A program made the translations under genes and the position numbers. Positions 4,019-28,077 of a stretch of DNA of 64,000 nt are shown here, piece by piece. Location: the NCBI GenBank assembly GCA_963668625.2, contig CAXXKA010000006.1, positions 800,001 through 864,000 of the forward strand. Direction: 5' to 3'. Numbering within the stretch: position 1 is the first letter of the stretch; every line of letters starts with the position of its first letter. Below the pieces are notes generated by a model. The model was not told the DNA's origin and made no database searches. It saw nothing but the letters and a program-made list of their open reading frames with translations. The stretch comes from an uncultured candidate division Zixibacteria bacterium (GTDB lineage Bacteria > Zixibacteria > MSB-5A5 > UBA10806 > 4484-95).

Positions 4019-5460
4019 GATACGTTTTTGCGGTCATACTCGTTATATTTTCTATACAGGTTAGCCAAGCTGGTTGGACAACCGCCGAGAGAATATCGGA
4101 TGAGAATACGGCTTTTCATCCACGCTTTGCAGTGAATGGGCAGTATATACATATTATTTATTATACTTTTACCGGGGGAAATGGCTTAGTGCACTATTTA
4201 AGAAGCACAGATAATGGATGTTATTGGGATGAACCCTATTTATTAGTAGATACATCAGAAGCTTCAGGAACGATACTTCCGGTTATCAGGACTAACGGTG
4301 ATTCGGTTTTTGCACTTTGGAGTAATTATTATCATTCTGGAAGCCGTCGGAATATAAGTTTTCGCAGATCGTTAAACAACGGCCTGACCTGGCAACCAGT
4401 ACAATATTTGCTGTATCCCAGGGATTACCATTTTCAAAAGCACACTTTAAGCGTATCTGGTAGCAATGTATTTATTGCATATAGCGACTACGATGAGGAT
4501 CTGATTTACAATTTTATGAAAAGCACAAACGGCGGCCAGACCTGGACTGAACCTGAAGAACTACTAAGACTATATGACGCTGATTTTATGGACATGGCTT
4601 GCCGCGGAGATACTATTATTCTTGTTTGGGCTGGCAATTACAGTGTTGACGATAGCTGGGAGTCATATTATATGAAAAGTAACAATGCCGGAGATACCTG
4701 GTCTGATGCTGTTTTACTTTCAGAGCCTGATACTATTAATTCTAATCACCCCTCAATTTCAATAAATGAACAGGGCAATATTGTTGTTTGCTGGTATGAT
4801 GGAAAGTATTCCCCTCACCCCTGGAACGGAGACTTATTTGTAAGATATAGTTATGATATGGGTGAGAGTTGGACTCAGGAAGAGCAGATTTATTTTAACC
4901 ATTGGGCGGCTTTTCCCCGAGCTATCTGGCAAGGCGATTCAATTCATGTTGTCTGGCAGGATGATGACATTTGGGGAAGCATCGATTATATGTTAAGCCC
5001 TGATAATGGCTTGACCTGGGAGTACCTACAACGATTGGATAACGATACTTATTTCTCGACCTATCCTGATCTAGCGATAAATGATAGCTCTACGCATGTA
5101 GTATGGGGTAATAACATAGATACTGGACCTGGTAGCGGGATTTATTATAGCCGCTGGGAGCCAGAGGTTTCAGTTCCGGAGCTAATACCGCGTGATTACA
5201 ATACAAATTTAATGTCATATCCTAATCCATTCAATTCGACTACTAAATTACTTTTTAATGATGTGAAAGGGGGTGATATCGAGATATATAATATTACTGG
5301 GAAGTTAGTCACATGTCTCGTTTTGGGGGACTGTCAGGAGAGAGAAATTACATGGGACGGCACCGATTTGTCAGGCAAAAAAGTTAGCACTGGTGTGTAT
5401 TTTGCAAAAGCTGGTACACAACAGGGTTCGACATCAATCAAGTTAGTATTTTTAAAGTAA
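4015..5460 (+). CDS. Secreted BNR beta-propeller + T9SS-type CTD, array copy 4
   Basis: Same architecture; ATGA overlap with copy 3. Confidence 0.88.
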   Translation: MRYVFAVILVIFSIQVSQAGWTTAERISDENTAFHPRFAVNGQYIHIIYYTFTGGNGLVHYLRSTDNGCYWDEPYLLVDTSEASGTILPVIRTNGDSVFALWSNYYHSGSRRNISFRRSLNNGLTWQPVQYLLYPRDYHFQKHTLSVSGSNVFIAYSDYDEDLIYNFMKSTNGGQTWTEPEELLRLYDADFMDMACRGDTIILVWAGNYSVDDSWESYYMKSNNAGDTWSDAVLLSEPDTINSNHPSISINEQGNIVVCWYDGKYSPHPWNGDLFVRYSYDMGESWTQEEQIYFNHWAAFPRAIWQGDSIHVVWQDDDIWGSIDYMLSPDNGLTWEYLQRLDNDTYFSTYPDLAINDSSTHVVWGNNIDTGPGSGIYYSRWEPEVSVPELIPRDYNTNLMSYPNPFNSTTKLLFNDVKGGDIEIYNITGKLVTCLVLGDCQEREITWDGTDLSGKKVSTGVYFAKAGTQQGSTSIKLVFLK

Positions 5461-11145: not shown

Positions 11146-12591
11146 ATGAAGCATATTTTTACAGTCATACTCATAGTATTTTTAGTACAGGTTAGCCAAG
11201 CAGGTTGGACGCCTGCCGAGCGGATATCGGATGAGAATACGGTTTATCATCCGAGGATAGCAGCTAATGGGGAATCTATTCATGTTGCATATTCTGTAGA
11301 TACAAACGGAAATAATATAGCGTATTATTTAAGAAGCACAGATAATGGACAATCTTGGGCTGATCCTTATTTAATGGTTGATACTTCCGAAGCTCATGGT
11401 ACATTATTTCCTATTATTAGAACCAACGGAGATTCACTCTTTATGCTTTGGAGAAATTATTATAATACGGGAAACTACAGAAATTTGAGTTTTCGCAGAT
11501 CGCTAAACAATGGCTTAACATGGCAACCAGTACAATACTTATTGTATCCCCGCGATTACCATTTTCAAAAACATACTTTAAGTGTATCTAGCAGCAATGT
11601 ATTTGTTGCTTATAGTTACCATGATAGGGATCTGATTTATGAATTTATTAAAAGCACAAATGGCGGCCAAACCTGGAGCGAACCGGAAGAATTGTTAAGA
11701 TTATATGATGCTGATTTTATGGATATGGCTTGTCGCGGAGATACGATTTTCCTTGTTTGGGCTGGTAGATACAGCAGTGATGACCGCTGGGAATCTTATT
11801 ACATGAAAAGCAATGATGCTGGAGAAAATTGGACTGAAGCTCTCTTGTTATCCGAGCCTGATACTATCGGTTCTCATCATCCATCTATTTCAATTAATGA
11901 TACTGGTGAAATTGTCGTTTGTTGGTGTGATGGTAAGTTCTCTCCTAATCCCTGGAATGGTGATTTGTTTGTGAGGTACAGCTACGATATGGGGGAGACC
12001 TGGACAAATGAAGAACAGATTTATTTTAACCATTGGGCAGCTTTTCCCCGAGTTATCTGGCAAGGCGATTCTATCCATGTTGTCTGGCAGGATGATGACA
12101 TTTGGGGAGGCATCAATTATATGTTAAGCCCTGATAATGGCTTGACCTGGGAGGACCAACAACGATTGGATAATGATACTTATTTCTCGACCTATCCTGA
12201 TCTAGCATTAAGCGATAGCTCTGTCCATGCAGTCTGGAGCAATTACGTAGATACAGAGCCGGGCAGCGGGATTTATTATTGTCGTTGGGAACCGGAGGTT
12301 TCAGCACCAGACTTAGTGCCGGAGAACTACCATATCAGCCTGGTATCTTATCCAAATCCATTCAATTCAACAACGATGATTAATTATCAAAACATCGAAG
12401 GAGGTGATATAGAAATCTATGATATCAGAGGTCGTTTGGTCAATACACTCGTTTTGGGGGACTGTAAGGAGGGAAAAATAACATGGGACGGCACCGATTT
12501 GTCAGGCAAAAAAGTTAGCACCGGTGTGTATTTTGCAAAAGCCGAGACACCGCAGGGACTCACATCAAACAAATTGATATTTTTAAAATAA
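11146..12591 (+). CDS. Secreted BNR beta-propeller + T9SS-type CTD, array copy 7
   Basis: Same architecture; ATGA overlap with copy 6 tail. Confidence 0.88.
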   Translation: MKHIFTVILIVFLVQVSQAGWTPAERISDENTVYHPRIAANGESIHVAYSVDTNGNNIAYYLRSTDNGQSWADPYLMVDTSEAHGTLFPIIRTNGDSLFMLWRNYYNTGNYRNLSFRRSLNNGLTWQPVQYLLYPRDYHFQKHTLSVSSSNVFVAYSYHDRDLIYEFIKSTNGGQTWSEPEELLRLYDADFMDMACRGDTIFLVWAGRYSSDDRWESYYMKSNDAGENWTEALLLSEPDTIGSHHPSISINDTGEIVVCWCDGKFSPNPWNGDLFVRYSYDMGETWTNEEQIYFNHWAAFPRVIWQGDSIHVVWQDDDIWGGINYMLSPDNGLTWEDQQRLDNDTYFSTYPDLALSDSSVHAVWSNYVDTEPGSGIYYCRWEPEVSAPDLVPENYHISLVSYPNPFNSTTMINYQNIEGGDIEIYDIRGRLVNTLVLGDCKEGKITWDGTDLSGKKVSTGVYFAKAETPQGLTSNKLIFLK

Positions 12592-12681
12592 TTGAGTAAC
12601 AATCTAACTTGACATTTGCAGTAAAGTGGGTATATTTTGTGTGTTGTAATAAATGTAAATCAGCTTAGGGGAATTACTGCC
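12592..12681 (+). promoter_or_regulatory. Repeated intergenic promoter/RBS module (copy 3 of 4)
   Basis: Near-identical to 5461-5550. Confidence 0.7.
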
Positions 12682-14130
12682 ATGAGAAGAATATTATTAT
12701 GTTTGCTGTTTATTTTTATTGCCGTACCATGCCAGGCAGGTTGGACCCCCGCCGAACGGATATCGGATGAGAATACGGTTTATCATCCGAGGATAGCAGC
12801 TAATGGGGAATCTATTCATGTTGTCTATTCCAGTTGGATGGGGGCTAATGTTCCATATTACGTGAAGAGTGATGATAATGGCTTAACCTGGAGTGAGCCT
12901 TACTTAATGATCGACACCTCAACTAATGCAAACGCTGTCTTTCCGTTAATTGAAACATCCGGTGATTCGGTTTTCTCGATATGGAAACATAATATACGAA
13001 ACTCCAGCCATAAAACTATAGCATTCAGAAGGTCTCTAGATAACGGTGATCACTGGCAACCGATTGTGGATGTAATCCAACCTTGGGATTATATTTTACA
13101 AAAACATGCTATGAGTATATCCGGCAGAAATGTTTTTATCGCTTTTAGTTACAATGATGATAATTATGATTTAGTATATAAGTTTATGAAAAGCACAAAT
13201 GGCGGCCAAACCTGGAGCGAACCTGAAGAATTGTTAAGACTATACGATGCTGATTTTATGGATATGGCTTGCCGCGGAGATACGATTTTCCTTGTTTGGG
13301 CCGGCAATTATAGTGTTGACGATAGCTGGGAATCGTATTACATGAAAAGCAGCGATGCTGGAGATACCTGGTCTGATGCTATCTTACTTTCAGAACCAGA
13401 TACTATAAATTCTAATCACCCCTCAATTTCAATAAACGAACAGGGTAATATTATTGTTTGCTGGTATGATGGCAAGTATTCTCCCAATCCCTGGAATGGT
13501 GATTTGTTTGTGAGATACAGCTACGATATGGGCGAGACCTGGACTGAAGAAGAACAGATAACGTTTAATCACTGGGCAAGAGTTCCGCGTATTGTATGGC
13601 AAGGCGATTCACTCCATGTTGTCTGGCAGGATGATGACATTTGGGGGAGCATCGATTATATGCTAAGCCCTGATAATGGCTTAACCTGGGAGGATCGGCA
13701 ACGCTTGGATGACGATTATTATTACTCAAGTTATCCTGATATTGCTACGGATGATAGTTCCATCCATGCAGTATGGAGCAATTACGTAGATACTGAACCC
13801 GGTAGCGGGATATATTATAGCCGCTGGGAGCCAGAGGTTTCAGTTCCGGAGCTAATACCGCGTGATTACAATACAAATTTAATGTCATATCCTAATCCAT
13901 TCAATTCGACTACTAAATTACTTTTTAATGATGTGAAAGGGGGTGATATCGAGATATATAATATTACTGGGAAGTTAGTCACATGTCTCGTTTTGGGGGA
14001 CTGTCAGGAGGGATCGGTTATTTGGGACGGCACCGATTTGTCTGGCGAAAGAGTTAGCACCGGGATATATTTTGCAAAAGCTGGGACAAAGCAGGGATTC
14101 ACATCAAACAAATTGATATTTTTAAAATAA
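12682..14130 (+). CDS. Secreted BNR beta-propeller + T9SS-type CTD, array copy 8
   Basis: Start reassigned to ATG 12682 (RBS AGGGGA, MRRILL signal peptide) instead of 12637. Confidence 0.88.
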   Translation: MRRILLCLLFIFIAVPCQAGWTPAERISDENTVYHPRIAANGESIHVVYSSWMGANVPYYVKSDDNGLTWSEPYLMIDTSTNANAVFPLIETSGDSVFSIWKHNIRNSSHKTIAFRRSLDNGDHWQPIVDVIQPWDYILQKHAMSISGRNVFIAFSYNDDNYDLVYKFMKSTNGGQTWSEPEELLRLYDADFMDMACRGDTIFLVWAGNYSVDDSWESYYMKSSDAGDTWSDAILLSEPDTINSNHPSISINEQGNIIVCWYDGKYSPNPWNGDLFVRYSYDMGETWTEEEQITFNHWARVPRIVWQGDSLHVVWQDDDIWGSIDYMLSPDNGLTWEDRQRLDDDYYYSSYPDIATDDSSIHAVWSNYVDTEPGSGIYYSRWEPEVSVPELIPRDYNTNLMSYPNPFNSTTKLLFNDVKGGDIEIYNITGKLVTCLVLGDCQEGSVIWDGTDLSGERVSTGIYFAKAGTKQGFTSNKLIFLK

Positions 14131-14220
14131 TTGAGTAACAATCTTACTTGACATATGCAGTAAAATGGGTATATTTTGTGTGTTGTAATAAATGTAAATC
14201 AGCTTAGGGGAATAACTGCC
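14131..14220 (+). promoter_or_regulatory. Repeated intergenic promoter/RBS module (copy 4 of 4)
   Basis: Near-identical to 5461-5550. Confidence 0.7.
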
Positions 14221-15666
14221 ATGAGAAGAATATTATTAAGCGTACTGTTTATTCTTATTGCTGTACCATGCCAAGCCGGTTGGACACCCGCCGAGAGAAT
14301 ATCGGATGAGAATACGATACTCCATCCACGGATTATCTCTAAGGGCGATAATTTACATGTTATGTATAGTAAATGGATAGGTTCTGACCTTCCTTATTAT
14401 ATTCGAAGCGAAAATAACGGTTTGTCGTGGAGCGAGCCGTACATGATGATTGATACAACGATTTATTCAAATGGGGTATTTCCAGTATTGGAAGTCGTTG
14501 GTAATGTTGTTTACGCATTGTGGCGGCAGAGTTATCGGAGTATTAATCGAAGGGCTCTTGCTTTCAGGATATCTGTAAATAATGGGATTACTTGGGGGCC
14601 AATAACGAATATAGTAACTCTTAACGATGAGTATTTTCAGAAACACACATTTTGCGTATCGGGAGATAATATATTTGTAATCTATAATTATTACGATAAT
14701 GAATTAATTTATAAGTTTGTCAAAAGTACAAATTATGGGCAGACTTGGTTTGAACCGATAGAGTTGTTCCGGGCCAATGAATCTGGTTTAATAGATATGG
14801 CTTGCAGGGGGGATACGATTTATTTCGTCTGGTCCGGCAATTTTAGTTCTCAAGATAGCTGGGAGACATATTATTTAAGAAGTTTAGATGGCGGCGATAC
14901 TTGGAGCGAAAATCAATTGCTTACAGAGCCTGATGCAATAGGCTCCCAACATCCCTCTATAGCTATTAATGAGAATGGCAATGTAGCTGTGTGCTGGACT
15001 GACGGCAAATACTCCCCAAACCCCTGGAATGGAGACTTATTTGTCAGATACATTTATAATTCAGGAGAAAACTGGACACAGGAAGAACAAATAACCTTTA
15101 CTCACTGGGCTAGAGTCCCTAGAATTGTCTGGAGAAGCGATTCTATTCATGTAGCCTGGGAAGATGGACGTTATAGTGCGAGTGATCCCTTTTATATGTT
15201 AAGCCCTAATAACGGAATTAGTTGGGAACAGGAACAGCTAATTGATAATGATCCTGAAGCATCGGAATATCCGGATATAGCTTTGACTGATAGCGGTGTT
15301 CATGTAGTATGGACTGATTTCCGTATGTATGATCTGGGGCGAGGCGTTTATTATTCGCGCTTGGAACCTGATGTATTCATCGATGAAGCTGTTCCATGGG
15401 ATTACCGTACGAAATTAATATCCTATCCTAACCCCTTTAATTCAACTACGCTAATTTTATATTCGAATCCGGAAGGATGTGATTTAAATATATACGATAT
15501 CACAGGACGATTGATTAAAACGCTGTGTCTTAGGGCAACTAGAAAGGGGAATATAGCCTGGGACGCTACTGACAACTCCGGTAATTTAGTGGCAACTGGA
15601 GTTTATTTCGCAATTATGAGTACACATCTGGGGACTGTTTCAACAAAGCTTATTTTCCTAAAATAA
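14221..15666 (+). CDS. Secreted BNR beta-propeller + T9SS-type CTD, array copy 9 (most divergent, terminal)
   Basis: Start at ATG 14221; same motifs, visibly more substitutions in the core. Confidence 0.86.
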   Translation: MRRILLSVLFILIAVPCQAGWTPAERISDENTILHPRIISKGDNLHVMYSKWIGSDLPYYIRSENNGLSWSEPYMMIDTTIYSNGVFPVLEVVGNVVYALWRQSYRSINRRALAFRISVNNGITWGPITNIVTLNDEYFQKHTFCVSGDNIFVIYNYYDNELIYKFVKSTNYGQTWFEPIELFRANESGLIDMACRGDTIYFVWSGNFSSQDSWETYYLRSLDGGDTWSENQLLTEPDAIGSQHPSIAINENGNVAVCWTDGKYSPNPWNGDLFVRYIYNSGENWTQEEQITFTHWARVPRIVWRSDSIHVAWEDGRYSASDPFYMLSPNNGISWEQEQLIDNDPEASEYPDIALTDSGVHVVWTDFRMYDLGRGVYYSRLEPDVFIDEAVPWDYRTKLISYPNPFNSTTLILYSNPEGCDLNIYDITGRLIKTLCLRATRKGNIAWDATDNSGNLVATGVYFAIMSTHLGTVSTKLIFLK

Positions 15667-15698: not shown

Positions 15699-18600
15699 GT
15701 GTTAAAAGCATTTTTTAACATTAGTGTGTTAGTGTGCTTAGTATTGATGAGTTCAATGTCTCTAGCTTCGGACGAATACTGGACAGATTTGAATGCGCCG
15801 TACTGGGCTAACGGAATTGATGTGGCCGTAGGACAAACAGATACTTCGCCTGGAATCCGATATCTTATAGGTTCTAACAATGAAAATACAAACCTAATGC
15901 GATGGAATCTAATAAGCAATGGCTGGGATGATTTTTTCCCAATTTCATCATCTGTAAAGCTCGTTTCATATAAAAGAAATAACCAAGGTCTCAGAGCTTT
16001 TTGTGCTCAATCTGGAGGGGATGTTTATCGGACTAATGATGGTGGCATCAGTTGGGATCATATATTATCCATCCCAGCTAATACCAACTACAGCGCCATT
16101 GATGTGACGACATTCTTCGGTGATCCCGGACAATATATATTCGCGGGAATGGCGAGTGAAACCGGTCATGTTTCAGCATATCTTTATGATAACGATTATC
16201 AGAATGGCACATGGTTTATGCTCGGTGATGACACCCCGCAAAATAATCTGCTCTATGAGAAGGATGTTTTCGATGTCGAATGCTCTGAAACTAGAGGTGT
16301 ATATGCCGGTACTGAGGATGGTCTCTATTTTCATGACTACCCTGCAGATCCTCAAAATCAGAATCCCTGGCAACACTTGAACGCACTACAAAACTGTCAG
16401 GTACGGGCTTTAGAATCAATCGATGATATGCACGGGGAGCAGCTTGCTGCTGTTATTGATCCCGGCCAAAACAGAAAACTGTACTTCTCGGGATTAGGGA
16501 ATATATGGGAAAATCCTATTGAACTTAAACCGCGAGGGGAGTCGTTTGAGAAGCCTGTCAATGATATAGCGGGAGTTTACTGGTATAATGATCATGTGTC
16601 TTGCTATGCGGCAACGTCTGATGGATTGTATAGCATATATTTTCAACAGAACACGACTGGCGACTGTGATGAAATAGATATCGCAAACTATGCAAATGTT
16701 TTTAACTATGATAAGAATTTTATCGCAGTTGACTATTATTTCTATGATGATGAAAATAAGCACGCGAAGGTGATAGCCTCAACACCGAACAGTGTTTACG
16801 AAATACATGAGGAGAGAGATAATAATGGTACCCTGGTTAGTATCGAAGTCACCGAAATAACCAACGGCACTTATAAATGCGATGCCGCCGCTTTAACATT
16901 CCCTGAATATGTTCCGGGAGTCACCAGGAAGGTATTCATGAACACCCCGGAAGGATTAATAAAAAAAGGCAATCTGGATGATTGGAAACTTTGCGGATTA
17001 TCGAATCTCAATCATTCATCATATATAGGTACCGATGTGGTTTCAGAACCAACTGGTAATGGGATAGTAATCGCAGCATCATCAGCAAGCGAGACTGCCA
17101 ATGGCATGATCATATATTCGGGTGACTATGGGGTAACATGGCAAGAACCGGAACTGCTTCCAAATTCTATAAGGTCGCTGGCGTTGAGTCCTCATTCCGA
17201 TGAAGCTTACGCCGGCGGATATGGTCAATTGCTTTACCATAGCTCCGACAATGGTCAGATATGGTCAGGAATAATTAATATGGGCGAATTGGTTTTCGTC
17301 AATGATATCCTGGTTGATCCCGATCCGAATAGACAGAACTATATATATGTTGCCGGGTCGGTGGCTTATGGAACTACAACAAAGATCAAAGCTGGCAATG
17401 GAGGTCAGTGGTATGATATAGAGAATGGTTTAAGCGCTGTAAACAACGTATACCAATTATGTAAAAAACGCCGATGATGATGCTTTATATGCCGCTACTG
17501 ATGACGGTATATATAAAGCGGATATCTCTAACCTACAAAATGTCACCTGGGTTAGAAAAACCGATGAGATAGGTAATCCCGCGTTTGCCTCGATAGTGAA
17601 CGATCCCAATGAGAAGTACGTGCTGTTTGGATCAACTTACCCCGGTATAGGTAATCCTCACGTATATGTCAGCGCGGATTCCGGCAGGAGCTGGAACGAT
17701 TATACTCAGATTATCGGTGATGATGATGCCGATATAAGTAAATTAGCATTTTCACAAAGCGCTGAACCCGCGGTCATCGCTGGAACAGAAAAAGGATTAT
17801 ACTTTGTACCGGATATAGTTAAGTCGGGCAATCATGATTCCCACCTTGAATGGGGACCTGGAAAAATAATTGTGAACGGTGATGTGTCCAATTGGCTTTA
17901 TGGTGATTTGGAAATAGTTAATCCATGCACGCTTCTTTTTGTATATGATTTTGCTAGGAGTGATTGTGACTTCGGTTGGCAAGCATCCAAATCTGAATTG
18001 TTTCTTAAGGGCAATACTGTTAATGAAGATTTTATTGCCAATGGATCACAGCAAGATAAAATAATATTTACATCATCTCACACTACAAATCCTCAACCGG
18101 GTGACTGGGGTGGAATTACTGTTTGCTATAACTCCCATCCTTGTATCAATATGCAGCATTGTAAGGTAGAATATGCTGATTATGGTATTATTTCACATTA
18201 TGCGGCTAGACCATATAAGTTTGAAGTCACTTATTGTGAATTTAAAGATATGGTGATGGGAGGAGTAATTGTAATCTGCAATCCTCTATATTATAGCACG
18301 ATTGTAAACAAGTGTACTTTTGAGAATTGTGGTGGCTATGCATTAGAATTAGCTCGCGATAAAGAGACATTTACTCCTTCACCTTATCTCACTAATAATA
18401 CTATTATTAATAGTACTATTGGATTGATTTACGCCGGTTCAGGTAACAGCACGGACTCGAGAAAGGCTTATATAGAACATAATGTAATTCAAGATTGTGA
18501 CGAGTATGGTATTCTTGTTAGCATAAGCTATGATGCAATATATCCGCCACGCGTCGAGATAAACGATAATACGTTGACAAATATTCAAGGTACAGGCATA

Positions 18601-19380
18601 CAATTATTCGAGGTTTCAGATAAGACTGTAATAGGAGGTAATGAGTTAATAAACTCGGGAAACTATGGGGTTTACATTACAAATTCATCACCTGTTCTGG
18701 ATGAGTATTCAGGTTCACCTAACATTATTAAAGCAGCGAAAGTCGGAATATACTGCGACGGATACAGTGGTCCTTACGTTAGAAATACTGTTATCAGAAA
18801 TAGTATAAATTATGGAATTCTTGCCGAGGTGAAGGAGCCACCCGTAACATTACCTAACTTTGGCGATGTGTCTGATCCAGGAAATAATTCATTTACTTAC
18901 ATTAATCCCTCTGCAAAGTACCGAGATATATCTATAAAATATGATGGTGCACAATATGAAGTCCTAGCTCAGGGAAATTGGTGGGGAGAATATCCTCCCA
19001 ATGCTACTGAAATTACGGGTTATGTAACTTATGATCCCGCGCTGGATTATGATCCCTGGAAAGGCTATGGTAAAAGAGTCGCTAACGAGGCAAACATACC
19101 GACTAGAGTAACATTGGATCAAAATTACCCGAACCCTTTTAACCCCAGTACGGATATCTCCCTTTATATTCCAGAGACACAACAGGTATCTGTAGATATT
19201 TATAATATCCGAGGCCAGGTAGTTAAGAATCTGATTTCAGAAATCCTTAGTATTGGTCACTACACGATCCATTGGGATGGGAAAAACGAGAACAACAATG
19301 CCGTGGCATCTGGTATATATTTCTACGTTTTAACTACTGATGATGAAAAAGTGACCAAGAAAATGACGCTTTTACGATAA
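15699..19380 (+). pseudogene. Large secreted protein (beta-propeller + right-handed beta-helix + T9SS-type CTD) split by a +1 frameshift at an A6 run (~17463-17468)
   Basis: Deleting one A gives ...CKNADDDALYAATDDGIYK... in frame with ORF 17596-19380. Signal peptide, Asp-boxes, PGDWGGI, NWWG and QNYPNPFNP tail are present. May be a sequencing error. Confidence 0.75.
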
Positions 19381-19409: not shown

Positions 19410-19961
19410 ATGAAAAGGTTTAAAATATTAGGCTCTTTATTTATTCTGATAGTCTCGCTCTTAGTACTATCTGGCAATGTAATAGCCGGGGAAGTTATGT
19501 ATGAAATATCGAGAGGTAAAGTAATACATGACCCAGATTCCCAAAATAATAGATTTATTTTCAGACCAGAGATAGATATTTTTGGAGAGAGCACTTATAT
19601 TGTTAAGGCAACATTAAGTACTGAAATCACGCCATTAACAAACGATACGACATTCTTGGAAATAAGAATTTATCCAATAACAACAGATTGGTATGGAAAC
19701 AATGTGTCTTGGACGAATCCTTGGAATGAGCCAGGCGGTGATTTTGATGAATTACATTACGCGCATGCTCTAGTATCTTTACCTCAGGAGCAGGAGGTAA
19801 GATTCGATCTAACGAATCTGCTACAGGGATTTTGTAGTGGCAACCTGGAATATTACGGATTTATTGTAACTGTCTCAGCTAGTTCTTGGGATGCTTTCAC
19901 ATTATCCAACCTGCACTCTAATAGGCCGCTAGCGACGATAAATGTGGTGTATTTTCAATGA
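19410..19961 (+). CDS. Secreted DNRLRE/disaggregatase-like domain protein
   Basis: Signal peptide; I-x-x-A-T-L ... IYPITTDW...VSW..PW..PGGDF...FDLTNLLQ...GFIV pattern. Confidence 0.6.
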   Translation: MKRFKILGSLFILIVSLLVLSGNVIAGEVMYEISRGKVIHDPDSQNNRFIFRPEIDIFGESTYIVKATLSTEITPLTNDTTFLEIRIYPITTDWYGNNVSWTNPWNEPGGDFDELHYAHALVSLPQEQEVRFDLTNLLQGFCSGNLEYYGFIVTVSASSWDAFTLSNLHSNRPLATINVVYFQ

Positions 19962-20019: not shown

Positions 20020-20060
20020 AATTAGCGCTGTCAATTATAAGGGGATATTTACGATTTTTA

Positions 20061-20089
20061 TTGACCATCTGGTGGATAATTCTTATACT
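20061..20089 (+). promoter_or_regulatory. Sigma70-like promoter for 20186 gene
   Basis: TTGACC-17 bp-TATACT. Confidence 0.6.
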
Positions 20090-20185
20090 TATTTACAGGG
20101 GCGTAGTTTAATTATGCCCTTTTTTTCTCGTTAAGGTTGTATTAAGGCAACACGATATTTATCAGCCTAATATTTCATCGGGCGC

Positions 20186-21229
20186 GTGGTTATGGATATA
20201 TCGGATAATAAAATATCACTTATAGAATTTTTAAATGACCCATCTAATAAAAGAAATTTCATAATATTTTATAAGCTGTGTTATGCTCACGTCTACGGTT
20301 TCCTGACATATCAAAAAAGAAAAGGTTACTATTATCCTGACAATATGTATACCAGCAATGATGGTCTCAGCGATATGGCTGTTGATATACTGGGGGCGCT
20401 ATTTCGAAATGATAAGAGCAGAAAGTTTAATGTGATATATGATTACTACAAGTCTCACAACATAACCGAGTATTCATCTACAAATGTCAACGAAATATAC
20501 GACTTATTTAAGCAGCTGGTAAATAGTTTTACTCGTCAAGAGCTGAGTAAACTGAAAAAAGCCGTCGACCCGCAGATAGATAATCTAAAGCGACGAATAA
20601 AGAGTATATTAAAAAGCTCTGATTACGCCGTGTATTCAGCGAACCCATCGGGAGAGAAGTATATAAGGTTATCATCGCAGGAGCATGACAAGAATGATAG
20701 CAACTCGCCAATTGAATTTGATTCTTTACTTGATATCGCCAGGGAGGCTTATTATAGCAGTAAGAACCGGGTGGAATGGTGCTTCAATATATTTGAAACA
20801 ATAACAGATGAATATGGCCCGGCCTCTTTTGTGAAATTTCATGAGCTGATCAAGGCAATGATCCAGGTTAATGTGACTGATTTGGAGCTTTATTATAATG
20901 ACAAAACCAATAAGATAACAACGGATATTACTTACAGCGATAGTACCTTAAATGAGAAAAAGAACCTGACACTCAAATGGGTAAAGGAAGATACGTTAAG
21001 TTCTTTTGTAATCAATGGGCGGCTTGATGATGATCTGGCCGAAAGAATACTACAGGCTGTTGATAATTATCTCTCTGATTTGTTATTTTCATCCGGTACT
21101 GATGCTTTACCATTGTATTTCCGTGAGGTTATGCCGGATTCCGAACATAAATGCTATCTGGATAAGTATAAATATATCTTTGAGACAACCATCCGAAACG
21201 CTGAGGATTATCTAAAAAAGATAATTTAA
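20186..21229 (+). CDS. Hypothetical protein, putative divergent sigma-factor-like regulator
   Basis: Soluble 347-aa ORF. LSDMAVDILGALF resembles the ECF region-2 'AEDLxQExF' helix, and the gene lies directly upstream of a ZAS anti-sigma gene. The call rests mostly on context. Confidence 0.45.
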   Translation: MVMDISDNKISLIEFLNDPSNKRNFIIFYKLCYAHVYGFLTYQKRKGYYYPDNMYTSNDGLSDMAVDILGALFRNDKSRKFNVIYDYYKSHNITEYSSTNVNEIYDLFKQLVNSFTRQELSKLKKAVDPQIDNLKRRIKSILKSSDYAVYSANPSGEKYIRLSSQEHDKNDSNSPIEFDSLLDIAREAYYSSKNRVEWCFNIFETITDEYGPASFVKFHELIKAMIQVNVTDLELYYNDKTNKITTDITYSDSTLNEKKNLTLKWVKEDTLSSFVINGRLDDDLAERILQAVDNYLSDLLFSSGTDALPLYFREVMPDSEHKCYLDKYKYIFETTIRNAEDYLKKII

Positions 21230-21231
21230 TA

Positions 21232-21259
21232 TTCTACAAATAAGCTGTTTGGCAGCTAT
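21232..21259 (+). promoter_or_regulatory. Bipartite motif TTCTACAAAT-N10-GCAGCTAT (copy 1), candidate alternative-sigma promoter
   Basis: Both blocks and the spacing recur exactly at 24449-24476. Confidence 0.55.
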
Positions 21260-21268
21260 ATCATTTTA

Positions 21269-22150
21269 ATGGGGGAGGATTTGAAAGTGGCGCACCCGGA
21301 TAAAGAAAAACTTAGAGCCTACGTAGATGGCTACCTCGATAAGTTATCCACAGATGATATCATCGAGCATGTTGAGGTGTGCGAGTTCTGCGGGGAGTAT
21401 TGTGAGGAGTATCGTATGCTCTCGGATTCGATCTCAGCCGCCATGTCGATGCCGCTGCCTGAAAATGCGGTTAAATCGGCTAATAGAATTTATGAGAGTA
21501 CTTTTACAGGCAAAATTATTATGCTGAATCTCATGTCTGTAAATGATAATAGCCGCGGGATGGATTATGTTCTAGCCGCGGATGGCAATATAAAAAGCGA
21601 ACTGCCGATTCAAAATATCGCCACGCTTTTCTCCGAGGACCCTGATATCGTTCTGCAGTTGATTCGTGATCATAATAATGACTCGGATTATCTGCAGGTT
21701 ATCAGCGAAAATATCGATTTATGTTCATTCGTGATGGTACATGCTCTGGAGCTGGGCAAGGAATATATCACCGATATAAATGGCAGGGCCGCGATAGAGG
21801 ATAGGCTATCGAAAGAATATATCGATTCCAAGTGGCAGATTAGACTACCTGATTCAGTGTTTGATTTGAAGGCGCTCGAGTACGATCCAGAAAAAACAGT
21901 TTCCCGTGATATGACAGTTATCGAGAATGAAAGCGGCGATAAGATAGAGATAAATCTTCTTAAAAAAACCGTGGGCTTACAATTAGATATTCGTATTGTC
22001 GAGTTTGCTGATGGCCAAAAATACGAGGAATTAAGAATATTAGTTTCTCAAAAAGGTTCAGCTAATGTTCTCCCGATAAGCCAGGGCAAAACGGTCTCAT
22101 TTCCACTTACCTCACCGGAGGAAATAATAAGTGTCAGGATATTCGCTTAA
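21269..22150 (+). CDS. Zinc-finger (ZAS/zf-HC2) anti-sigma-like protein, soluble
   Basis: HP...LRAYVDG...IIEHVEVCEFC gives HxxxCxxC; no TM segment; internal YVLAA. The real start may be TTG 21281 or GTG 21287 after GGAGG. Confidence 0.7.
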   Translation: MGEDLKVAHPDKEKLRAYVDGYLDKLSTDDIIEHVEVCEFCGEYCEEYRMLSDSISAAMSMPLPENAVKSANRIYESTFTGKIIMLNLMSVNDNSRGMDYVLAADGNIKSELPIQNIATLFSEDPDIVLQLIRDHNNDSDYLQVISENIDLCSFVMVHALELGKEYITDINGRAAIEDRLSKEYIDSKWQIRLPDSVFDLKALEYDPEKTVSRDMTVIENESGDKIEINLLKKTVGLQLDIRIVEFADGQKYEELRILVSQKGSANVLPISQGKTVSFPLTSPEEIISVRIFA

Positions 22151-24444
22151 TGGCAAAATCTCCAGTAGCATTCGCCCGGGAATATACCCGGTTACTATCA
22201 GATATAAATAATGCTCCGTATGACGAGCGCAAAATTAACCTCCTTATAGATTTCTGGCCAGTTATTGAGCCTCATATAAATTCAATAGCATATCAAAGCT
22301 ATGTTGATGAGTACTGCTCCAGACTCAGTTTCCTGGTAAGCGAGAACTCGTTATATGATTTTAATCTCGATGAGTTGCATGAATTATCGATGGTGGTAAA
22401 CGCGCTTACAGGTAATGAGCATCTCGATAAACTGAAGGCTCGTGTCGTATATTTTAAGCTGATAACCATGCTCTTCTATATTGGTGATATACAAAACGCG
22501 ATAAAGAGCTGTTACAATTTATTAGAAATTGGTGATGCTGGTATCCCCGAGGAAAGTAACCTGCAATCGGTTGATTCTTTTATGCAACTTGAAAAGCTGG
22601 TTGAGTATTATTCTGACAGTAATAAAAGACTGGGGGAGATTCTCGGCGAGATTCATGAGAGATGGAAAGCCGAGCGGGAATGTGTCAATAACGATCGCGC
22701 GGTATGCCTGTTTGTCGAGAAGGATGGTAGAGGCGATAGTATCCGCGGCAGGATGAGAATACTCAAGGGACGAGTGGAACGAAACGATACGTCTAATTCT
22801 GGTGATGTAGACACTGTCACATTCGATAATCAAGCCAGGTCGCCGGATGATCCATTCATCGGTGTTGCTTATGAGTCGTTACAAGCTGTCAGGAAAACTC
22901 TGGCCATACAAAAGTTATCAAGCAAAAAAGATATATCCTATCGGGCTTATTTTCATATTGAAAACAGCGACCATATATTCACCGGCGATTCGATCGGGGT
23001 GGCAATGGGATTAATTTCCTATACGCAGCTTATCAAGGATGATATAGCCAGGCGGGAGAGATATATTGCCAACGAGGTAGCCTTGACCGGCGGGGTAGAT
23101 AACGAGGGGAATCTATTACCGGTTAATGAGGCTACTCTCGCTTATAAATTGAAACGGGCGTTTTTCTCACCGGTGAAATACGTTCTTGTACCGGACTCCT
23201 GTCTTGTTGTCGCGCGCGAAAGCCTGGCTGAGTCAGCGAAGCTTTATCCGAACCGTCAGATGACACTGATTGGCTGTAACTCACTATATGATGTCATAAG
23301 GGATTACAACATACTCCGCGCGGAAAAAGTATGTATGAGTCGGTATATAACCAGGTATGTGGTCAAATACAGCAGGGTCACGAAGATCCAGGTGCCGCTG
23401 CTGTTGTTATTGATTTATGGTATGCTGTGTTTGATATATCCCAAGGCGTGGGTGGGATTTGATAGGAATCCCTGGTATGTCAACCAATTAAAGTCAGGTT
23501 TTGAGGTATTTAATGCTGATTCTTTACGGCTGTGGAGTATAGATTATGGGCGTGATCTCTGCTGGGTTAAGGAATTAATTGAGCTAGATGATTTAGATAA
23601 TGATAGCTATAACGAAGTGGTTGTTGTTCCCAATGAAAGCACTGCTGTGGAAGATAACGCGCATTTATTCGTATATGACAGTAATGGCAATTTGCTTTTT
23701 GAGAGAAACTGCGGTATAGAAGGCCAGTATCCTGGCGATGAGTCAATTTCCCCGCAATTTGTCAGCGCTTATTTTAATGTGTTGAATCTTGGCGATAGAA
23801 ATATCATTCTTACCAAGGCGTTCAGGTCATACCCGGCAAGGCACCATTTGAAATTATGGGATATTGATAGTGATTCTATTGGCTGGTACATAAACGCAGG
23901 AACTACCGCCTCTAAATCAGGCACCATAGTTTATGATAATAATAAATTAATGATGATTGGTGATAACAACCGAATGATGAGAGGTGCTTTGTTTGTTTTA
24001 TTAATTGACTCTTGCTATGGAGTGTCACCGCCTTACGAGGATGACTATTACGATTTAAGCTGGGTCAAAAGGGGAAATCAGCTTTGTTATATCGTATTCC
24101 CTAATACTGATATAGAGGAGTTGATAGGTTCGCCATACAACACACCGGTATCGATGACAATTGATAAAGACAATACAGTTTTGGTCGATGTTTGCTCGAA
24201 CTCATGGGAAATGAATGAACATAAAGCAGTCATTAGTTATTGGGTAGATAGTAGTTTTCGAGTAGTCGGTGCCAGTGCAAGCGATGCATTTAAAAAGCGG
24301 CGCAATGAGCTTGTTGTCGATGGCAAGCTTGAGCCGGTTGAATTGCATCAATACTGTGAGGAATTATTAGATTCGGTGCTTTATTGGACAGATTCAGGCT
24401 GGGTAAGCGAGGCTCAGCTTCGGCTTGCAGAAAATCCGCAATAG
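22150..24444 (+). CDS. Membrane-anchored Lon-type (S16) protease-domain protein with extracytoplasmic C-terminal domain
   Basis: TGDSIG (Ser281) ... VALTGGVDNEGNLLPV..TLAYK (Lys333) matches Lon DGPSAG...AMTGEI...G.VLPIGG.KEK. TM helix at ~aa 415-437; FG-GAP-like DLDNDSYNEVVV after it; no Walker A motif seen. Confidence 0.7.
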   Translation: MAKSPVAFAREYTRLLSDINNAPYDERKINLLIDFWPVIEPHINSIAYQSYVDEYCSRLSFLVSENSLYDFNLDELHELSMVVNALTGNEHLDKLKARVVYFKLITMLFYIGDIQNAIKSCYNLLEIGDAGIPEESNLQSVDSFMQLEKLVEYYSDSNKRLGEILGEIHERWKAERECVNNDRAVCLFVEKDGRGDSIRGRMRILKGRVERNDTSNSGDVDTVTFDNQARSPDDPFIGVAYESLQAVRKTLAIQKLSSKKDISYRAYFHIENSDHIFTGDSIGVAMGLISYTQLIKDDIARRERYIANEVALTGGVDNEGNLLPVNEATLAYKLKRAFFSPVKYVLVPDSCLVVARESLAESAKLYPNRQMTLIGCNSLYDVIRDYNILRAEKVCMSRYITRYVVKYSRVTKIQVPLLLLLIYGMLCLIYPKAWVGFDRNPWYVNQLKSGFEVFNADSLRLWSIDYGRDLCWVKELIELDDLDNDSYNEVVVVPNESTAVEDNAHLFVYDSNGNLLFERNCGIEGQYPGDESISPQFVSAYFNVLNLGDRNIILTKAFRSYPARHHLKLWDIDSDSIGWYINAGTTASKSGTIVYDNNKLMMIGDNNRMMRGALFVLLIDSCYGVSPPYEDDYYDLSWVKRGNQLCYIVFPNTDIEELIGSPYNTPVSMTIDKDNTVLVDVCSNSWEMNEHKAVISYWVDSSFRVVGASASDAFKKRRNELVVDGKLEPVELHQYCEELLDSVLYWTDSGWVSEAQLRLAENPQ

Positions 24445-24540: not shown

Positions 24541-27500
24541 ATGAAAAAATCAATAATTCTAACAATAGTTATATTGTTTAATTTTGCGATGCTATTCGCT
24601 GGTGAAGTTACGATAAATACCGCAATAAATGTAGCAGATAACTGGCTTTATTTCCACAGTAAAAATCTTGAAAACAGTTGGAATCAATCACAAAATCCTC
24701 TTATAGGTGATTATAAAGCTTTAGTATCGGGAAACGATACTTTAGCTTATGTATTTTTTGTTAATCCGACTGGATATATCTTAGTTGCGAAATTTAGTGA
24801 AATTGTGCCCGTTGTAGCATATTCCACTACTGAGCAATTAGAAACTAGTGGCGATTATAGTTTTGCAAGAGTATTAAAAGATGATATGCTAAAGAGAAAC
24901 AAATTAGTTGAAAATTATCTTTCTGGGAAAATCGTTCTTGATGATAGTCCCAATGGGACGCATGCTGTTGAAATAAATCGGGGGAAATGGAATTTATGGT
25001 CATTAGATGCTTATACGTTTGCAAATATTTACAATGACTACATTCCTTGCAATATCATGGATGTTGGTCCTTTGTTAGAAAGCGAATGGCATCAAAGTGA
25101 GCCATACTATGACCTATGTCCTGTTGGTAATGATGGAGGGCAATGCGTAGTTGGTTGTGTAGCAACAGCAACTGCTCAAATCATGCGGTATTGGCAATGG
25201 CCACCTTCTGGAAATGGTTCACATACATATTACTGGCGCGGTGATGGCAGTGCTCCGGGATGTAATCTCATCGGCGATTTCACCGATCCCTATAATTGGT
25301 CAAATATTCTGCTTGATTACTCTGAAGGGTATAATGATGATCAAGCTTTGGCAGTAGCTGAGTTATGCTATGAAGTGGGCGTTGGTTATGAAATGGATTA
25401 CCATGTCGGTGGTTCTGGAGCATTTACAAGCCATTGTGTTTCTGTGTTACCTGCTTATTTTAGATATGCTAATGAAATAGATCAAGAAAGCAGACCTGAC
25501 CATACAGCCGAAAGTTGGTTTAACATGATCAAAGCAGAGCTTGATTTAGCGAGACCGTTACTTTATAGGATTTACCAAACAGGCTGGGGTGGTCATGCAA
25601 TTGTATGTGATGGATGGAGAAATTCCGGCGGTGAAAATCAACTACATTTTAATTATGGCTGGGCCGATGGTCATAATACTTGGTACTCGGTTGATAACCT
25701 ATATCCCGGTTCACCGGAAAATGATCGATGTTATCTCGGTATAGTCCCAGCTTTTGAGGATGATAGATCAATTACATTATTATCCCCGAACGGCGGCGAT
25801 ACCGTATTTAATGGTAGAACAGAGCATATTACATGGGAATTTGAAGGCAATGTTGGGGATACAGTTATAATAGATCTTTGGAAGGGCGGGAGTTTCCGGT
25901 GTAATCTCGATACGGCCAGAAATATAACATGGGCAAGTTGTTATATTCCGACAAACTTGCCCGAAGATTCCGACTACAAGGTAAGGATTTCTTCCCTTGA
26001 CAATTCAGTTATCGATTTGAGCGATGCGAATTTTTTAATTATTGAGCCGCTTCCCACAGAGTTAGATACAATTCGAATATCTAATGCCTCCCAACTCCAG
26101 CAGATTGGCAGTGACGACCAACATCCGCGGAACGGATACTACGTACTGATGAATGATATAGACGCTGGCGTAATTCCAAATTGGCAACCCATTGGTCAAG
26201 ATTATCAGCATTATTTTCGAGGAACCCTTGATGGTCAAGGATTTAAAGTGTACGACCTTCAAATCGATCGCCGCTCTCAATCGTATATAGGTTTATTTTC
26301 TGTACTTATGGATAATGCTGTAGTGAAGAACCTTACAGTAGCTGATGATGGAATATATGGCTGGGGATCGGTAGGAGCCCTTGCCGGTGAATGCGCGGGA
26401 ACAGTAGTTAACTGCCATGCTTATATAGATGATCTTGAAAGTAAGGGAGGCGATAATACAGGAGGTTTGATTGGCGAAATAACTAACACTGGTAGAATTA
26501 TCAATTGCTCTGTAAGTTCATTGAATGACGGTGATGTAGAAGCGGACTCAACGGACACTAGCCCTGACTATATCGGTGGTTTTGCCGGAACCAATTCTGG
26601 CCAAATCAAATGGTGCTGGTCGGATATTACCGTTGATGGAGATCGTAGTGATTGTGAGGCTGATGGAGTTAGTGGACTTGTTGGGCAAAATGTGGGCTCA
26701 ATAATAGAATGCTATGTTAATAACCCATTAGTTGATGGCCATAATCAGGTCGGAGGTATCGCTGGTTTTCATTATTCTAATGGCTCTATAAGTAATTGTC
26801 TTGATGAGGCTCGTGTAATTTCAGATTATGCCGCCGGAGGGATTGCTGGGGAGACTGGGGGAGCATCAACTATTGATTGTTGTTTGGCAAATGGTTTTGT
26901 ACAAGGAGGTTGCCCCGGAGCGCTTGTCGGCGAACACTATGCAACAGCATCCAATTCTTTTTGGAACCGTGATAGAACAGGTATTGACCAAGTTACCTGT
27001 AATGATGGAGGTACTGTCATCAATTGTCATAGTATAAACGATACAGAAGCCAAACTCCAAGCTACCTATACTTCACAATATAGTACTAATTGGGATTTTT
27101 CTAATGTTTGGGCTATTAATAACGGCGTTAGCTATCCAAGGTTGAGAGGAATAGGGCCCATGCTTCAATCCCCGACTGGACTTTTGGCTTCTCAAGATCA
27201 ATCGGACGGTGTACATTTATCATGGAGCCATAGAACTTATCTTGTTCCTAATCCGGGGGGAGATTCACTTGGTCCATACAATGCAGTTTATCGGGTTTTT
27301 CGCTCAACGATACCGAATGCAAACCCGCCTGAAACCGAATTGACATCCGGGTGGCAAACAGGCATTACATTTCTTGATGTCACTGCTCTTTCTGGAACAA
27401 GTTACTATTATTACATAAAAGCCGCAGCGACTTTCAATGGTGCCCGTGAAAGTGGGTATAGTAGCTATGTACAAGGCCAACGTATTTTTGAATCACTTTC

Positions 27501-28077
27501 TGCTCCAACCAGTGTTTATGCCAGTGATGGTCTAGATAACGAGATTTATATTCGCTGTAACAACGTTCCTAATGCCAATTATTATTGTGCTTTCAGGGCA
27601 AACTCTATAGGTGGAACAAAAACACCATTGGGAAACTGGCAGGAAACCCCATCTTTTCTAGATACGCCTCCGCTTCCTGACACAATATATTATTATTGGA
27701 TAAAGGCGGCTGTTGATAATTCCGGCGGGAGAGAGAGTGACTATGGCGGCCCTGATAGCGGTTATTATGAAGTAATGGTCGATGTCAAGGATGATGAAGA
27801 GTATCTTATTCCTGATGCTTTTTCTATCGGGCAAAATTATCCCAATCCCTTCAATGCAAGTACAATAATAGAATATGCATTACCTCAAGCCTCAGATGTC
27901 TCCATTAAAATCTATGATGTTTTGGGACGTAAGGTTAAAAACCTTGTAAATGAGTACAAACAAGCCGGTATGCACCAAGCTGTATTTAACGCTAGTGACC
28001 TCAGTTCAGGAATATATTTTTATCGAATAGAGGTTGGCAAGTTTACTGAATCTAAAAAGTTGTTGCTGGTAAAATGA
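24541..28077 (+). CDS. Secreted C10-family (streptopain-like) cysteine peptidase with Spi-like prodomain, GLUG-like repeats, FN3-like domains and T9SS-type CTD
   Basis: WHQSEPY, CVVGCVATATAQIMRYW (catalytic Cys), GGHAIVCDG (His), HFNYGW; FRGTLDGQG..V.DL and VGGIAG repeats; QNYPNPFN tail. Confidence 0.88.
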   Translation: MKKSIILTIVILFNFAMLFAGEVTINTAINVADNWLYFHSKNLENSWNQSQNPLIGDYKALVSGNDTLAYVFFVNPTGYILVAKFSEIVPVVAYSTTEQLETSGDYSFARVLKDDMLKRNKLVENYLSGKIVLDDSPNGTHAVEINRGKWNLWSLDAYTFANIYNDYIPCNIMDVGPLLESEWHQSEPYYDLCPVGNDGGQCVVGCVATATAQIMRYWQWPPSGNGSHTYYWRGDGSAPGCNLIGDFTDPYNWSNILLDYSEGYNDDQALAVAELCYEVGVGYEMDYHVGGSGAFTSHCVSVLPAYFRYANEIDQESRPDHTAESWFNMIKAELDLARPLLYRIYQTGWGGHAIVCDGWRNSGGENQLHFNYGWADGHNTWYSVDNLYPGSPENDRCYLGIVPAFEDDRSITLLSPNGGDTVFNGRTEHITWEFEGNVGDTVIIDLWKGGSFRCNLDTARNITWASCYIPTNLPEDSDYKVRISSLDNSVIDLSDANFLIIEPLPTELDTIRISNASQLQQIGSDDQHPRNGYYVLMNDIDAGVIPNWQPIGQDYQHYFRGTLDGQGFKVYDLQIDRRSQSYIGLFSVLMDNAVVKNLTVADDGIYGWGSVGALAGECAGTVVNCHAYIDDLESKGGDNTGGLIGEITNTGRIINCSVSSLNDGDVEADSTDTSPDYIGGFAGTNSGQIKWCWSDITVDGDRSDCEADGVSGLVGQNVGSIIECYVNNPLVDGHNQVGGIAGFHYSNGSISNCLDEARVISDYAAGGIAGETGGASTIDCCLANGFVQGGCPGALVGEHYATASNSFWNRDRTGIDQVTCNDGGTVINCHSINDTEAKLQATYTSQYSTNWDFSNVWAINNGVSYPRLRGIGPMLQSPTGLLASQDQSDGVHLSWSHRTYLVPNPGGDSLGPYNAVYRVFRSTIPNANPPETELTSGWQTGITFLDVTALSGTSYYYYIKAAATFNGARESGYSSYVQGQRIFESLSAPTSVYASDGLDNEIYIRCNNVPNANYYCAFRANSIGGTKTPLGNWQETPSFLDTPPLPDTIYYYWIKAAVDNSGGRESDYGGPDSGYYEVMVDVKDDEEYLIPDAFSIGQNYPNPFNASTIIEYALPQASDVSIKIYDVLGRKVKNLVNEYKQAGMHQAVFNASDLSSGIYFYRIEVGKFTESKKLLLVK

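Follow-up and report, generated by a model that had tools for sequence, protein, structure and literature searches.

Clipping a regulator to unmask a tag for the ClpXP protease is an established principle, with RseA, LexA and CalpT as examples. RseA, the anti-sigma factor of Escherichia coli sigma-E, lies in the membrane and is cut twice, by one protease at site 1 and then by another, within the membrane, at site 2. The RseA/DegS-RseP/SspB-ClpXP pathway is described as one in which anti-sigma proteolysis exposes a VAA end for ClpXP. LexA reportedly cuts itself with a Ser/Lys pair at a small-residue site, and its N-terminal fragment, ending in VAA, is said to be a ClpXP substrate; it is a self-cutting repressor, not an anti-sigma factor with a separate protease. 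Closest to the present case is the CalpL-CalpT-CalpS system of type III CRISPR loci. As reported there, CCaCalpL cuts CCaCalpT after the LAA of 202-LAA-A, cleavage alone leaves CalpS bound, and the freed LAA end serves as a C-degron, which A204D disables (bioRxiv 10.1101/2024.05.08.593097). The same preprint likens the CalpT ending to that of RseA, which ends in VAA, and places the docked CalpT site remote from the active site of the CalpL subunit on which it docks, with cutting in trans within a filament (10.1101/2024.05.08.593097). A ClpXP-degron idea has been stated for the Sulfurihydrogenibium system (PMC11417357), and anti-sigma factors of Mycobacterium tuberculosis carry an ssrA-like degron recognised by ClpX; the latter are membrane-associated, and the abstract describes no dedicated Lon-like partner (bioRxiv 10.1101/491043). 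Is the same logic used elsewhere? Here we analyse a stretch of 64,000 nucleotides (the window) from an uncultured candidate division Zixibacteria bacterium, in which three consecutive genes encode a sigma-like protein, an anti-sigma-like protein and a Lon-like membrane protein. The original prediction had read an internal ssrA-like degron, YVLAA, in the anti-sigma and proposed that the neighbouring Lon domain cuts directly after it and thereby marks the sigma-binding fragment for ClpXP. Every part of that interpretation that computation could address passed, and we regard it as partly supported.

The motif lies in the second gene, which encodes a soluble anti-sigma-like protein of the zinc-binding anti-sigma (ZAS) type (21287..22150, + strand). 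In the open reading frame (ORF) at 21269-22150(+), residues 100-106 are Y-V-L-A-A-D-G, with the codons tat gtt cta gcc gcg gat ggc at 21566-21586; Y100-A104 are coded by 21566-21580 on the + strand. Residues 91-104 are VNDNSRGMDYVLAA and residues 91-106 are VNDNSRGMDYVLAADG, and both the YVLAA followed by DG and the longer stretch agree, in DNA and translation, with what the original prediction had read. Residue numbers in this text count from ATG 21269, which gives 293 aa. The true start is probably GTG 21287, giving 287 aa, because a Shine-Dalgarno-like run, GGGGGAGGA, stands at 21271-21279, 7 nt 5' of that codon, homologs open with (M/V)HP, and 287 aa is also the length of the stored gene call; counted from GTG 21287, the LAA motif is residues 96-98. 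How surprising is such a motif? Judged by chance rates in the same genome, taken over 2077 crudely called ORFs no shorter than 250 aa, 293 aa should hold 0.16 occurrences of LAA, 0.49 of [LMIV]AA and 0.007 of Y.LAA. One LAA in an anti-sigma of this size is therefore, by itself, not significant.

Conservation changes this assessment. A word-index homolog search with the anti-sigma gave only the self-match. An exhaustive search of representatives at 50% identity gave 167 relatives at E<=1e-3, and the members of 240-340 aa among the 150 listed were aligned with MAFFT (n=129; 21 were dropped for length). Residue 104 is alanine in 129/129, a count that leans partly on MAFFT, the weakest representatives being difficult to align; as an independent check, 23/23 anti-sigma rows from genome loci carry the motif. 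Residue 103 is alanine in 124/129 and R, H, E, S or P in the other five. At position 102, leucine is found in 102 sequences, methionine in 15 and isoleucine in 7. Measured as an ssrA-like ending, AA is present in 124/129 and L, M or I stands before AA in 124/129. On the other side of A104, position 105 holds aspartate in 92 sequences, glutamine in 15 and glutamate in 11 (118/129 together), and position 106 holds glycine in 74, serine in 36 and threonine in 7 (117/129 together). The most frequent forms are LAADG (46), LAADS (20) and MAADG (7). Ranked by information content among 287 columns, A104 stands first, A103 6th and L102 18th, and alignment gaps are concentrated at 91-92 and 110-111.

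A divergent branch of paralogs adds to the picture. Hydrophobic-Ala-Ala is found in 12/12 of them (LAAQG, LAAKA, IAAQG, LAAMG, IAAEG and similar), and the residue after AA drifts to Q, K, M or E. Because the paralogs keep hydrophobic-Ala-Ala and lose the next residue, constraint is greatest on the side that would form a new C-terminus, and it is conservation, not a single occurrence, that raises the motif above chance. The original prediction had staked itself on LAA being conserved in homologs; it came through this check, with A104 as the top column of the family. Its comparison of YVLAA with the ssrA tag stood for the three-residue core (102-104) and fell for the rest, as Y100 is Y in 21/129, positions 93-99 are variable and the upstream NDN is unconserved. 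We note separately that a GC-rich 9-mer, TAGCCGCGG, occurs twice in the window, at 21550-21558 and 21573-21581, 23 nt apart and in differing reading frames; (G)ATGG follows both copies, and the second codes for the LAAD of the motif. This pair, shorter than the 10-nt minimum of the repeat search, could be coincidental or the trace of an old duplication by slippage. An Rfam scan of window positions 19000-25000 found no RNA family, on which ground a hidden RNA element was ruled out as the cause of DNA conservation.

Where in the protein does the motif sit? The AF2 model of the anti-sigma, built with 80 sequences, has a pLDDT of 91.9 and divides the chain into three parts. An anti-sigma domain at residues 9-79 (21293..21505, + strand) has helices at 12-19, 25-37, 39-60 and 65-79, with pLDDT >90 within 12-79, and candidate zinc ligands H9, H34, C38 and C41. 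A flexible linker at residues 86-113 (21524..21607, + strand) follows, in which no secondary structure is predicted, the block pLDDT for residues 91-110 is 67, and sequence and length vary around the motif. A beta-rich domain at residues 114-293 (21608..22147, + strand), the first part of which is predicted to dock, completes the protein. The conserved island L102-A103-A104-D105-G106 (21572..21586, + strand), with its proposed scissile bond A104-D105 and candidate latent C-degron LAA-COOH, lies in the low-confidence linker, between the ZAS and C-terminal domains as the original prediction had placed it.

The identity of the N-terminal domain, also claimed at the outset, gained support from several directions. 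The H-x3-C-x2-C zinc motif is kept (H34 in 126/129, C38 in 126/129, C41 in 127/129, and the motif in 12/12 divergent paralogs). The family profile matches three other ZAS-like ORFs in the genome, one of which adjoins a canonical extracytoplasmic function (ECF) sigma gene; hhalign of the family with this canonical ZAS anti-sigma (locus L037) gave 91% probability (E 1.1e-6, 47 columns). In the VIA fold comparison, 4/4 rows over residues 5-79 are anti-sigma factors, at middling Z values: RslA (Z 6.5, rmsd 5.0, 60 aligned), RsiW (Z 6.1, rmsd 3.4, 70 aligned), MucA (Z 5.7) and ChrR (Z 5.2). The NCBIfam ChrR model gave E 0.026 and 14.3 bits on the anti-sigma, far under its cut-off of 124.5. With class I ZAS proteins (RslA, RsiW, ChrR, RsrA) the domain shares H-x3-C-x2-C, the four-helix fold and a His 25 residues upstream (H9), at ChrR-like spacing; that class has nothing to match either the beta domains at the C-terminus or the conserved motif of the linker. 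The four-helix domain would bind and inhibit its cognate sigma-like protein. The anti-sigma is soluble, with no hydrophobic segment (maximum KD19 1.22). Its last ~100 residues are MATH/TRAF-like, with middling matches to SPOP MATH (Z 7.7) and TRAF6 (Z 7.3), and no catalytic motif is evident in the protein by Pfam scan or VIA fold comparison.

The anti-sigma sits in a conserved three-gene cassette: sigma-like, anti-sigma, Lon-like. Among 26 metagenome loci anchored on the anti-sigma, three end too early for a downstream call; in the 23 evaluable loci, the Lon-like gene lies directly downstream in 22 and the sigma-like gene upstream in 23. The reverse view took the Lon-like gene as anchor, at 29 genome loci; two of these begin inside the gene and one is masked upstream. 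Of the 26 evaluable, 23 have the anti-sigma upstream. A distant ZAS-like ORF at locus L029, which carries LAAKG, falls short of the hidden Markov model threshold, and two Lon-like genes (L023, 5001-7421; L028, 4998-5993) have no sigma-like or anti-sigma partner upstream. The frame at L023 is broken into three overlapping ORFs, and this gene is probably a decaying copy. At both of these loci a rubrerythrin-like 160-aa ORF occupies the partner position upstream. In the divergent branch the Lon-like gene is downstream in 12/12 and the sigma-like gene upstream in 11/12. Across the phylum sample, an anti-sigma homolog (E<=1e-10) is present in 65/151 genomes and 43/88 genera, with 2-3 copies in some genomes (G018, G048, G143 and others). 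Relatives are recorded under Zixibacteria and a few other groups. The multiple copies and the divergent branch suggest several parallel signalling channels per cell.

The third gene encodes a 764-aa membrane-anchored Lon-like protein, a presumed protease-sensor (22150..24444, + strand; 74 homologs), whose ATG overlaps the anti-sigma stop codon (TAATG). Its N-terminal helical domain, with an approximate boundary at residues ~1-190 (22150..22719, + strand), carries a predicted docking surface at 4-16 and 46-61. A Lon_C-like (S16) protease domain follows at residues ~222-392 (22813..23325, + strand), with Ser281 (codon 22990-22992) and Lys333 (codon 23146-23148) on the + strand by translation. 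S281, in GDSIG, and K333, in KxKRAFF, are invariant in 27/27 aligned family members. An hhalign comparison with the Lon_C domain from the Lon of this genome gave 51.8% probability (E 1.5e-4, 146 columns), with S281 falling on the Ser of DGPSAG and K333 on the catalytic Lys. The family profile also matches the protease domains of Archaeoglobus fulgidus LonB (E 0.008), and there too the Ser and Lys align. The neighbouring Lon domain invoked by the original prediction is thus borne out by an invariant Ser/Lys pair aligned to the catalytic residues of the genome's Lon.

A single transmembrane helix at residues ~413-433 (23386..23448, + strand; KD19 up to 2.05) is assigned N-in/C-out from KD19 and charge bias. 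The 20 residues before it hold 5 K/R and 0 D/E, and the 20 after it 2 K/R and 2 D/E; because five K/R precede the helix, the Lon-like domain is predicted to be cytoplasmic and the FG-GAP domain to lie outside. The extracytoplasmic part, the presumed sensor (23449..24441, + strand), carries FG-GAP-like repeats by Pfam and profile matches: FG-GAP_3 is found in 14/27 and FG-GAP in 5/27 family members, and the family profile matches the FG-GAP/propeller structures 6mlt and 2z8r. No AAA+ module was found in the protein or its relatives by Pfam and NCBIfam, and Pfam gave no SAVED match in the protein or 27 relatives. Gene 3 thus differs from canonical LonA and LonB: its Lon_C-like domain is combined not with an AAA+ module but with a helical N-domain, a transmembrane helix and FG-GAP repeats. 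Elsewhere in the genome a second weak Lon_C match (G000:C9:68253-68564, 23 bits) lies in a 525-aa frame, which could be another Lon_C-only protease.

Do the anti-sigma and the protease bind each other? A complex of the full-length anti-sigma with residues 1-410 of the protease was predicted from custom alignments. It reached ipSAE values of 0.71, 0.67 and 0.71 in three runs, vs 0.00 for the best of 3 controls; the docking mark, reached by 116/157 solved complexes and 2/215 mismatched pairs, is a rough guide here, custom alignments having been used. At least 85% of contacts are common to the runs, and partner pLDDT is at least 72. Confident contacts involve residues 4-16 and 46-61 of the protease, which comprise the conserved SPLxFARxF and the Y51/E54 region, and residues 89-92, 110-132, 143-147, 152 and 171-172 of the anti-sigma, among them the conserved TLYSEDPEIVLRVMRD stretch. 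The motif-bearing loop, residues 93-109, is held between two anchored segments, with contacts flanking it at 89-92 and 110-132. Docking of the C-terminal domain onto the protease, part of the original prediction, is therefore what the complex model predicts. Because the docked CalpT site is likewise away from the active site of its own subunit and is cut in trans, the model is compatible with cleavage, of which it would be no demonstration.

The host has the machinery that the proposed degron would call for. ClpX is present (604 bits, above cut-off), with ClpP adjacent (287 bits), and the tmRNA (ssrA) tag of the genome is GDDYSYAMAA. Of five other module-carrying genomes searched, three have tmRNA above cut-off, with tags ending IAA, LAA and MAA, and their anti-sigma motifs are YLAADG, LLAADG and YMAADG. 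Because the tags end in MAA, IAA or LAA and the motifs read YLAA, LLAA or YMAA, the non-prime side of the motif falls into one class with the ClpX tags that the hosts themselves use. The genome carries two tmRNA genes on opposite strands, ~18 kb apart (G000:C6:155-508 and C6:18059-18413), with identical GDDYSYAMAA tags; the presence of a second copy points to an inverted duplication or to an integrated element flanked by tmRNA.

What would the anti-sigma hold? Gene 1 (20186..21229, + strand) encodes an all-helical, sigma-like protein of 347 aa by ORF and AF2 model, with an uncertain start codon. Its model has a pLDDT of 83.6, and residues 1-131 form an N-terminal domain whose fold may be sigma-domain-2-like. 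By VIA, 14/15 rows over residues ~1-130 are sigma factors (Z 5.7-7.3; pro-sigmaK 7.3, ShbA 7.2, RpoS 6.4, BldN 6.3, SigW 6.2, sigmaE region 2 6.2 and others), all of them below Z 8, a range common for helical models. The sigma-like assignment is a structural one, of moderate strength. A search for an ECF-type promoter 5' of gene 1 (36 loci, 5-mer/4-mer pairs, 15-18 nt spacing) found none special; a housekeeping-like TTGAC...TAT(T) pair occurred in 6/36 loci vs a shuffle maximum of 4-5. With no sign of an autoregulated special promoter, the sigma assignment is neither helped nor hurt. Searches of all three cassette proteins with Pfam, NCBIfam, PDB sequences and PADLOC gave no significant match, PADLOC had no match at the cassette, and Foldseek against the PDB matched neither whole model at E<=0.001. 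All three proteins are labelled "hypothetical" wherever the sources name them.

How might these parts work together? In the mechanism we propose, the four-helix domain would hold the sigma-like protein. Docking of the beta-rich C-terminal domain on the protease's N-terminal helices, as the complex model predicts, would leave the linker looped out beside the cytoplasmic Lon-type domain. An outside signal received through the FG-GAP domain would activate Ser281/Lys333, perhaps by oligomerisation and trans cutting as in CalpL. The protease would then cut the linker, most likely directly after A104. The resulting N-terminal fragment would end in LAA-COOH and, because this is the same ending class as the organism's ssrA tag (AMAA), would be unfolded and degraded by ClpXP, freeing the sigma-like protein. 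That the Lon-like protease cuts after A104 and that the ZAS fragment ending in LAA goes to ClpXP is the most likely explanation, though one on which we stand evenly divided.

Several observations weigh against it. At locus L052 (1254-3350) the anti-sigma homolog keeps an IAADN motif (SIAADN) with the sigma-like gene upstream, and the gene downstream is alanine-racemase-like, not a protease. The five residues other than alanine at position 103 would make poor ClpX endings. D/Q/E-G/S is strongly kept after AA, though a degron needs none; this shows that recognition of the intact site counts for at least as much as the degron. In the docking model, residues 102-106 are not among the confident contacts and are not placed at S281/K333. 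A solved CalpL-CalpT10 complex exists, and model memory could lie behind part of the score; a search of the PDB with the gene 3 family profile found no sequence similarity to CalpL-CalpT10 and no CalpL chain. The Lon assignment of gene 3 is weak by sequence: Pfam Lon_C matches 7/27 relatives at E<=1 (best 6.1e-4) and does not match the window's protein at E<=0.1, NCBIfam LonB reaches E 0.083, and the hhalign probability stops at 51.8%. Gene 1 is without sequence-level similarity to sigma factors. Pfam and NCBIfam found no sigma family in it, nor did Pfam in 18 relatives; its profile found no sigma factor in the PDB, hhalign against ECF sigma gave 0.2% probability, and the ESM Atlas returned unnamed hypothetical clusters only.

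Which other explanations fit the same data? The Lon-like protease may cut the site at another bond (A103-A104, or after D105), or the cut may have no degron role and simply untether the complex of sigma-like protein and anti-sigma from the membrane protease, with no involvement of ClpXP. Conservation reaching D105 (118/129) and G106 (117/129) is what protease subsites would be expected to give, the C-terminal domain holds the anti-sigma to a membrane protein in the docking model, and the gene linkage fits equally. The paralogs point the other way, their prime side drifting (Q/K/M/E, then G/A) with hydrophobic-Ala-Ala in 12/12. CalpT cleavage alone is reported to have left the sigma factor bound, the LAA ending being needed, and here the host tag ends in MAA and ClpXP is present. 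We consider this explanation unlikely, though a serious contender. It is improbable, in our judgement, that the motif is left uncleaved and serves as a binding or hinge element, such as a strand on the sigma-like protein, or as a pseudosubstrate in the protease active site, with regulation by partner switching or by zinc or redox state of the ZAS domain. The residues flanking the motif do contact the protease in the model, and ZAS anti-sigma factors such as RsrA are redox-regulated without proteolysis. A low-confidence segment without secondary structure, between indel-rich positions, is instead typical of a short linear motif, and an invariant Ser/Lys pair in an obligate neighbour implies a substrate. 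Ser/Lys proteases whose sites are known moreover cut at small-residue Ala-Ala sites, as in the LAA-A described for CalpT, and the Ser/Lys pair of LexA cuts at Ala-Gly.

Could the motif be cut by something other than its neighbour? The genome holds a canonical, housekeeping Lon (G000:C8), which might use the motif, as might self-cleavage, leaving the Lon-like protein with a different substrate, and L052 keeps IAADN with no adjoining Lon-like gene. Set against this are the near-obligate linkage to the Lon-like gene (22/23 and 12/12), translational coupling of the genes, the predicted docking and the lack of an evident catalytic motif in the anti-sigma, so that we give this alternative little credence. 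Least credible of all, to the point of being negligible, is that the likeness to ssrA arose by chance and has no function. LAA is expected 0.16 times in such a protein, and Y100 and NDN are unconserved; A104 is nevertheless the top column, and the motif persists across ~20-40% identity and in the paralogs. The chance explanation was rejected because family conservation contradicts it, and a role for the motif in the structural core is disfavoured by its place in a low-confidence, indel-flanked linker.

The cassette is an analogue of CalpL-CalpT-CalpS; homology is not claimed. Both systems are tripartite, with a sigma (ECF-like in the CRISPR system), an anti-sigma and a Lon_C-only Ser/Lys protease. 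CalpL and CalpT are described as a stable complex in which the C-terminal part of the anti-sigma docks on the protease, and C-terminal docking is predicted here; the CalpT cut is described in a poorly structured region, and here hydrophobic-Ala-Ala lies in a disordered linker. The systems differ in their sensors, a cytoplasmic cA4-binding SAVED domain in CalpL and a transmembrane helix with an outer FG-GAP domain here; in their N-domains, MazF-like in CalpT and a ZAS four-helix domain here; and in their neighbourhoods, CRISPR there and genes for secreted or type IX secretion system (T9SS)-type proteins here. The precedent of an Ala-ending C-degron in CalpT, on which the original prediction drew, is accurate as reported (10.1101/2024.05.08.593097). 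Unlike RseA, the anti-sigma here is soluble; one Ser/Lys protease, anchored in the membrane and acting in the cytoplasm, would suffice. In the literature searched, no membrane Lon-like protease paired with a ZAS anti-sigma is described, and the family, its membrane-sensor architecture and its very diverged sigma-like partner appear to be undescribed there.

What might the cassette control? The gene directly 3' of it mostly encodes a large, variable secreted or surface protein (33 scanned; loci L003-L089). T9SS sorting tails were found in 7 of the 33, dockerin-type domains in 8, FG-GAP repeats in 6 and beta-propellers in others; 2 had no match and 2 belonged to unrelated families. In the window this gene encodes a Peptidase_C10 protein with a T9SS tail (Por_Secre_tail; 24541..28077, Pfam). 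The downstream secreted-protein gene may be the regulon, or what the outer FG-GAP domain senses. Upstream of the cassette (window 15699-19961) lie further secreted-type genes, among them one for a 594-aa beta-helix protein with a T9SS tail (17596..19380) and one for a 183-aa protein with a weak disaggregatase-repeat match (19410..19961). Farther upstream, on the + strand, stand two sets of three similar-sized ORFs arranged head to tail, of 480-481 aa (1137..5460) and 481-497 aa (11146..15666), each of which looks like tandem paralogs.

In its widest form the proposal is that the cassette is a one-step transmembrane device. An FG-GAP-sensing Lon-like protease would clip a ZAS anti-sigma whose fragment goes to ClpXP, replacing the two-protease cascade of classical ECF signalling and freeing an unrecognisably diverged sigma-like protein that would drive the adjacent secreted (T9SS, dockerin, FG-GAP) genes; the cassette would then be a non-CRISPR, envelope-facing counterpart of CalpL-CalpT-CalpS. 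We hold this view tentatively, leaning somewhat towards doubt.

Why does such a cassette matter? A known clip-and-tag logic would be found here in an unannotated family, with no significant Pfam or NCBIfam match for any of its three proteins. The architecture of the protease is distinct: the protein is membrane-anchored, its Lon part is a Lon_C-type domain alone, and its sensor domain lies outside. Within a phylum that has received little study, the module is common. Mapping the cut and changing the two alanines would assign function to three protein families at once, and the same test bears on Lon-type "clip and tag" signalling as a general strategy beyond CRISPR defence. For the bacteria themselves, the cassette suggests how a large and variable set of secreted surface proteins may be kept under control.

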